Positions 1-276 of a stretch of DNA of 276 bases are shown here, one piece after another. The stretch lies in assembly GCF_003334335.1 (NCBI RefSeq), contig NZ_QOWQ01000227.1; one strand, 5' to 3'. Within the stretch, counting starts at the first letter, position 1, and each line of letters starts with the position of its first letter. A model generated the notes under the pieces. It was given only the letters and a program-made list of their open reading frames with translations, was not told the DNA's origin and did no database searches. The DNA comes from Escherichia coli. GTDB lineage: Bacteria; Pseudomonadota; Gammaproteobacteria; Enterobacterales; Enterobacteriaceae. Made by a program: the position numbers and the translations under genes.

Positions 1-26
1 CCGTATCCGGTGCGCCTGCATGGGCG
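1..26 (+). other. lom: C-terminal portion of the Sec signal peptide, with predicted signal peptidase I cleavage after Ala-Trp-Ala (codons 18-26); mature protein begins at Ser codon 27-29
   Basis: Translation (A)VSGAPAWA followed by SEQQ: small residues at -3 and -1 (A-x-A rule), then a polar mature N-terminus. Position matches the known signal-peptide/mature junction of Lom/Ail/OmpX family proteins. The hydrophobic core and the start codon are upstream of the window. Confidence 0.6.
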
Positions 27-276
27 TCTGAGCAGCAGGCCACGCTGAGTGCGGGGTATCTTCATGCCCTGACGAACACTACCGGTAGTGATGATCTGAA
101 CGGGATTAACGTGAAATACCGTTATGAATTTACGGACACGCTGGGGCTGATTACGTCATTCAGTTATGCCAATGCTGAAGGTGAGCAAAAAACGCACTGC
201 AACGATACCCGCTGGCATGAGGATTCTGTGCGTAACCGCTGGTTCAGCGTGATGGCGGGGCCATCTGTGCGCGTGA
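1..276 (+). CDS. lom: Lom/Ail/PagC/OmpX-family outer-membrane beta-barrel protein (lambdoid prophage Lom-like); internal fragment, truncated at both ends by the window; codon register starts at position 3
   Basis: Seen in sequence: a single stop-free frame of 91 codons spans the window, while the other two + frames carry early stops. Family motifs from established knowledge are present: NGINVKYRYEF (compare OmpX GFNLKYRYEE), LG-x-I-TSFSY (compare OmpX LGVIGSFTY) and MAGPSVRV (compare OmpX TAGPAYRI). Alternating aromatic/hydrophobic residues (I-x-V-x-Y-x-Y-x-F) fit lipid-facing beta strands. From memory, most of the translation is identical to lambda Lom. Confidence 0.85.

Follow-up and report, generated by a model that had tools for sequence, protein, structure and literature searches.

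The 276-nucleotide stretch of Escherichia coli DNA analysed here, referred to throughout as the window, very probably represents codons 17-107 of a 199-codon lom-family gene from a lambda-type phage or prophage of E. coli, in which it is carried as an accessory gene, or 'moron', with the tail-tip gene J on one side and the side-tail-fibre gene on the other. Public records already contain this exact sequence under the annotation Lom, and the gene is an ordinary and already known one; the original prediction had spoken of a well-known family and not of a novel system, and RefSeq and GenBank indeed annotate the identical gene as Lom or Ail/Lom. The Lom family has been known since 1979.

Reading frame, identical copies and distribution

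Six-frame translation of the 276 nucleotides shows that frame +3 (positions 3-275) has no stop codon and encodes 91 amino acids, VSGAPAWASEQQATLSAGYLHALTNTTGSDDLNGINVKYRYEFTDTLGLITSFSYANAEGEQKTHCNDTRWHEDSVRNRWFSVMAGPSVRV. The other five frames all contain stops, with one in frame -2 and two to seven in each of the rest. The list of open reading frames for the window holds just two, of 20-28 amino acids and in frames other than +3; the real gene is missing from this list because lom runs past both window ends. The translation, alignment with the lom gene of Escherichia phage PhiR5_1 and the match to Pfam Ail_Lom together define an internal fragment of a lom-family gene at 1-276 on the plus strand, made up of the final two bases of codon 16 (1-2), the whole of codons 17-107 (3-275) and the opening base of codon 108 (276). 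A Lom-like gene fragment spanning the whole of 1-276, as had been predicted, is therefore right, with no stop in frame +3 from one end to the other. In a comparison of 44 distinct DNA alleles of the region, codon position 3 of this frame accounts for 33 of the 57 variable sites, which indicates that frame +3 is translated and is the pattern expected under purifying selection. No Rfam family matches the window on either strand at E<=1.

Megablast shows that the window is identical at 276/276 positions to the annotated lom gene of phage PhiR5_1 (PV340545.1; protein XSB41337.1) and to the gene that E. coli SW070917 and NCTC9112 carry for WP_021565056.1, annotated as 'Ail/Lom family outer membrane beta-barrel protein'; the fourth record with 100% identity is an IMG/VR contig (L005). 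The full lom gene in the exact-match loci is 600 nucleotides long with 199 codons. PhiR5_1 Lom and WP_021565056.1 are the same gene as that in the window, which corresponds to residues 17-107 of their 199 with no difference.

Of 5426 complete E. coli genomes, 4621 contain the 199-residue Lom-like family, in up to 13 copies and with a median of two. The lineage of the window allele is rare, with identities of at least 99% in 20 of the 4653 matching E. coli records. Of the 54 matching records in a plasmid collection, some of which are very large, 52 are non-mobilizable, and none is more than 95% identical. The practical value of the sequence is as a marker, in that such a match points to a lambdoid prophage, whether intact or decayed, at that site in an E. 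coli genome.

Family assignment, predicted structure and allele variation

Residues 1-91 of the translation align with positions 17-107 of the 199-position model of Pfam family Ail_Lom (PF06316; i-E=3.7e-55, 187 bits), and a match to PHROG 108, 'Lom outer membrane protein' (E=8.4e-44), covers profile positions 17-107 of 199. Together with structure prediction and a fold search (see below), these matches bear out the proposed membership of the Ail/Lom family. The accompanying suggestion that the protein is closest to lambda Lom holds among characterised or solved proteins, as the window alone scores 50.8 bits with lambda Lom against 24 with OmpX and 22 with Ail, and in a sequence search of the PDB the full-length protein scores 157.7 bits with lambda Lom (9wso), 71 with Ail and 66 with OmpX. 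It does not hold overall, since the protein is just 36% identical to lambda Lom in the window and 41% identical over the full length.

Lambda Lom (NP_040601.1; PDB 9wso) has the same Pfam and PHROG family, an eight-stranded barrel, and a locus between J and stf; in the lambda genome (NC_001416) lom lies at 18965-19585, between J and the stf fragment orf-401. The motifs GINVKYRYE, SVMAGP and GDWRTD-FIVG-GY-F are common to lambda Lom and the full length of the window protein. However, lambda Lom has 206 residues with an 8-residue insertion in extracellular loop L1, and the J C-terminus beside it differs too (41.5% identity over the last 130 amino acids). The 199-residue Lom-like proteins of Stx-converting and other lambdoid prophages (JLK-2012 lom, Stx2a phages, and stfR-adjacent copies) have the same length as the window protein and the same position between J and stf, with 84-94% DNA identity over the window; the window allele differs from these at L1 (L39, T42, T43, D47) and L2 (G76, C82, N83), with greater divergence in the C-terminal half, beyond the window. 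Sequence comparison thus places the gene in a separate 199-residue Lom-like lineage that is sister to lambda Lom, and not in the lambda allele class. PDB entry 9wso contains as chain C a solved 'Outer membrane protein lom' of 206 residues with the lambda sequence (2026 PDB sequence copy). A literature search found no paper describing the entry; its partner chains, if any, might bear on Lom function.

An AlphaFold2 model of the full-length protein from an exact-match locus (10-sequence alignment, mean pLDDT 83.5, strands assigned by DSSP) has a signal helix (residues 2-17) and a linker of low confidence (18-25) ahead of eight strands, at residues 28-40, 48-58, 63-81, 86-106, 111-135, 141-166, 172-181 and 187-198. 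Foldseek comparison of this model with a PDB copy that does not include 9wso identifies Yersinia Ail (3qra, E=1.1e-13) and E. coli OmpX (1qj9, E=1.9e-12), both with a target-normalised TM of 0.83 and ~30% identity. The full-length protein is accordingly modelled as an eight-stranded antiparallel beta-barrel of the Ail/OmpX type, of which the window holds strands 1-4. Ail and OmpX, with Salmonella Rck and PagC, belong to the same Pfam family, but are chromosomal or plasmid genes and not phage morons, and the extracellular hairpins of the Lom-like protein are longer (199 amino acids compared with ~170 for the Ail, OmpX, Rck and PagC precursors). In adhesion, invasion and complement resistance, these four proteins act by way of their extracellular loops.

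The precursor in the exact-match loci starts with MRKVCAAILSAAICLSVSGAPAWA, followed directly after the cut by SEQQ, and has a basic N-terminal end, a hydrophobic helix, and an A-x-A motif ahead of the cut. The A-x-A rule marks signal-peptidase I cleavage, and by this rule we predict a Sec signal peptide with a signal-peptidase I site between A-W-A and S, after base 26 of the window. The last eight residues of the signal peptide, VSGAPAWA (residues 17-24), are encoded at 3-26, as judged from the precursor sequence and the modelled helix at 2-17; this and all of the following features are on the plus strand. In the model, beta-strand 1 (residues 28-40, by DSSP) occupies 36-74 and is followed by extracellular loop L1 (residues 41-47) at 75-95; the loops are assigned to the extracellular side by homology, as this side follows the OmpX/Ail topology. 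Beta-strand 2 (residues 48-58) at 96-128 contains the GINVKYRYE motif, which is near-invariant, and a periplasmic turn, T1 (residues 59-62), lies at 129-140. Beta-strand 3 (residues 63-81) at 141-197 is long, with an upper part predicted to jut out of the membrane, and beta-strand 4 (residues 86-106) at 210-272 is almost invariant within the 199-residue lineage when relatives are compared. The two form one long hairpin (residues 63-106) whose tip, at residues 82-85 and 198-209 in the window, is surface loop L2. The window therefore encodes two of the four surface loops, L1 and L2, with the other two beyond it, as is the C-terminus, ...VGTGYRF, which has an aromatic end and is seen in the identical public copies.

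Comparison with 59 unique 199-residue relatives shows that the residue of the window allele is carried by a mean of 91% of relatives per position inside the window, and by 66% in the C-terminal half beyond it. Inside the window, most allele differences map to L1 (positions 39, 42, 43 and 47) or to the uppermost part of the L2 hairpin (73, 76, 78, 82 and 83), of which 73, 76 and 78 are in the upper part of beta-strand 3; variation is also seen at 27 and 29, at the N-terminal end of the mature protein, at 62 within turn T1, and at 66 within strand beta3. The codon at 198-200, at the L2 tip, is TGC (Cys82). The nearest alleles have TAC (Tyr) here and differ from the window at no base other than G199. 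Of the 59 relatives, 57 carry Tyr at residue 82, one His and one Cys. Cys82 is not a sequencing error, as the same allele is present in four independent records. A lone unpaired Cys at the surface of an outer-membrane barrel is unusual.

Some alleles are mosaic. One (L009) is 84.6% identical to the window allele inside the window and 89.4% overall, and another (L010) is 92.3% identical inside and 80.9% overall. The L009 allele has the C-terminal half in common with the window allele but not the N-terminal half, and other alleles show the reverse. These mosaics point to recombination within lom.

Probable prophage setting and sequences flanking lom

The window has no flanking sequence, and its context is drawn from identical and related sequences. 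In all four exact-match records the end of a J homologue lies 71 nucleotides before lom, and 154 nucleotides separate lom from the tail-fibre gene that follows it. PhiR5_1 is a complete lambda-type genome, with an early part ordered int-xis, exo-bet-gam-kil, cI-cro-cII-O-P-ren, nin genes, Q, S-R-Rz, and a late part ordered Nu1-A-W-B-Nu3-D-E-FI-FII-Z-U-V-G-T-H-M-L-K-I-J-lom-fibre-tfa. Eighty related IMG/VR loci were also compared, 77 of them with enough upstream sequence and 78 with enough downstream sequence. The J C-terminus is within 100 nucleotides upstream in 76 of the 77, and a tail-fibre N-terminus within 200 nucleotides downstream in 76 of the 78; the remaining one and two loci, respectively, have larger gaps. 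J C-terminal ends and Lom alleles are shuffled independently among the related loci.

Because the IMG/VR contigs are pre-selected as viral, four further E. coli chromosomes were sampled across the identity range. In each of them lom is directly followed by a prophage tail-fibre gene, and J is intact upstream in one. E. coli HS (L086 1865-4887) and VTB97022v (L088 2908-4888) carry cryptic prophages in which a truncated terminase is fused to a truncated J, with the whole head and tail region deleted, and in AR_0069 (L087 4122-5554) a holin and YdfR take the place of J upstream of lom. In these three strains lom is intact (600 nucleotides) and adjoins the tail-fibre gene. A prophage setting, in some cases decayed, is thus found in all six E. 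coli chromosomes inspected. In the copies inspected lom is always phage-associated, and the prophage is often decayed while lom is intact. The predicted lambdoid tail-region context, after J and before stf, is therefore well supported by the exact-match records, the viral loci and the additional chromosomes, with the qualification that the prophage is sometimes decayed; we infer the prophage context of the window itself from the identical sequences elsewhere.

Terminator-like hairpins are present on both sides of lom in PhiR5_1 (L001), one with a T-run just past the J stop (7906-7925) and one after lom with a 13-bp stem and T-run (8658-8687), giving it the usual look of a moron. A search of L001 7600-8900 for sigma-70 consensus promoters found 0 sites compared with 1.4 expected in shuffled sequences, so no lysogenic lom promoter can be proposed. 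The lom-stf spacer falls into two classes, of 150-152 nucleotides (38 loci) and 64-70 nucleotides (43 loci). The long spacer of PhiR5_1 (8555-8704) has an exact extended -10 sequence, TGTTATAAT, at 8586-8594, followed by a conserved small hairpin and then the terminator-like hairpin; most long-class spacers have the weaker TGTTATGAT in place of the extended -10. The PhiR5_1 spacer folds better than shuffled sequence (z=-2.58), and no RNA family was found by Rfam in the lom region of L001, spacer included, at E<=1. The spacer may specify a small transcript or may just be the 3' end of lom. Its identification as the prophage sRNA svsR was considered and rejected, as svsR maps to the 3' end of cI (PMC12803456).

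Several other features of the exact-match prophages were observed. A gene for a YadA-C-terminal-domain protein, a putative trimeric autotransporter adhesin, is present in all three annotated exact-match records (L001 11670-12743, L002 15598-16671, L003 18004-19185) a few genes downstream of the fibre-assembly gene, and is another surface-protein moron near the prophage end. The NCTC9112 prophage (L003 4681-5844) contains a full-length porin gene annotated ompC within its tail module, between L and the M position, the latter occupied by a gene that follows the tape-measure gene; this ompC is a second outer-membrane moron in a prophage with the exact lom allele. In SW070917 (L002 1-6419), Mu-like genes coding for a Mu transposase C-terminal domain protein, an AAA ATPase and a Gam-family protein adjoin the lambdoid tail gene K, and the tape-measure, M and L genes present in the sister prophage are missing; the lambdoid prophage therefore looks to have been interrupted or truncated by a Mu-like element. 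PhiR5_1 (L085 7915-9488) has an annotated HipA toxin/HipD antitoxin pair directly downstream of cI on the same strand, at roughly the place occupied by rexA and rexB in lambda, and the interval from kil to cI has no annotated N gene.

Function and competing explanations

Whether Lom serves the bacterium, through adhesion or serum resistance, or the phage, through a block to adsorption, is a question for the whole family and is not raised by the window specifically. We consider lysogenic conversion of the cell surface to be the most likely role, with a phage-serving adsorption block ranked second. From established knowledge of the family, the precursor would be exported by Sec and cleaved after AWA, and the BAM machinery would insert the protein into the outer membrane of the host, the C-terminal ...GYRF fitting the usual aromatic-terminal insertion signal. 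Lom would also be made in the lysogen and late in lytic growth, and would act through its surface loops. Conversion of the surface would most likely take the form of adhesion to host cells, possibly with resistance to serum or complement of the kind known from Ail, Rck and PagC.

The functional data come from lambda Lom or from the phi24B orthologue. Lom is expressed in lysogens and is classed as a virulence or accessory factor (PMC7067206, PMC3594210), and a single 1997 study, as described by papers citing it, links Lom to adhesion to human buccal cells (Vica Pacheco 1997, cited in PMC11888456, PMC9836094 and PMC3594210). The phi24B lom orthologue is expressed similarly in lysogeny and induction (PMC3342100), and lambda Lom expression is cited as rising late in infection (in PMC11888456). 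Prophages stripped of their virion genes still keep an intact lom, an observation that fits a host benefit and favours surface conversion.

The same gene could instead be selected mainly for the phage, with Lom blocking adsorption of its own kind, either as self-exclusion or by avoiding wasted adsorption to lysing cells, and with adhesion incidental; we regard this as possible but the less probable explanation. Overexpressed lambda Lom protects strongly against lambda-vir but not against T7, and the authors of that 2025 preprint propose that Lom curbs wasteful adsorption late in infection (PMC11888456). Adsorption interference is also consistent with the near-universal location of lom directly after the receptor-binding gene J, and with the transfer of lom together with holin in lambdoid phages reported in a comparative study (PMC9836094). 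However, Lom at prophage levels does not keep a lysogen from being infected by lambda-vir (PMC11888456), and cryptic prophages that are unable to make virions nonetheless retain an intact lom. Moreover, loci with J C-termini 98-100% identical to the PhiR5_1-type J carry the majority Lom allele, which is ~78% identical, so Lom alleles are not matched to J receptor-binding types, which mildly disfavours a strictly type-specific self-block. No PADLOC defence model matches, although the PADLOC library is older than the preprint. A more elaborate form of the proposal, which we think unlikely, is that the Lom-like barrel is chiefly a phage-serving adsorption block whose allele-specific loops, including the rare unpaired Cys82 at the L2 tip, would set which phages are excluded, such that the multi-copy lom alleles widespread among E. 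coli prophages would constitute a diversifying exclusion repertoire and not adhesins.

It is very improbable that the window belongs to a lom pseudogene left in a decayed prophage, a dead remnant from which no protein is made. Precedents for decay do exist: lomR of the Rac prophage in K-12 is IS-interrupted, K-12-type genomes match only bases 200-276 of the window, many of the host prophages are decayed, and 2 of 84 loci have a truncated lom, with 186 amino acids in L008 (in which 2.8 kb separate lom from the next tail-fibre match) and 109 in L076. Both the start and stop codons of the window's own gene also lie beyond it. Nonetheless, all four records with 100% identical DNA have an intact 199-codon gene, as do 81 of the 84 loci, with lambda intact at 206 amino acids, and the substitution pattern noted above fits purifying selection.

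That the fragment derives from a chromosomal housekeeping gene of the ompX/ail/rck/pagC type with no phage link can effectively be dismissed, since despite the common family, the shared OmpX/Ail fold and weak NCBIfam matches, the scores with the OmpX equivalog (NF006917; 94.4 bits full-length and 34.8 for the window) and the Rck resistance-to-complement-killing equivalog (NF011777; 105.7 and 45.2 bits) are well below their cut-offs of 176 and 258, and lambda Lom scores more than twice as high as Ail or OmpX. Best matches to chromosomal ompX/ail-type genes without phage genes in the flanks would have pointed to such an origin, but every identical or near-identical copy inspected is in a phage or prophage.
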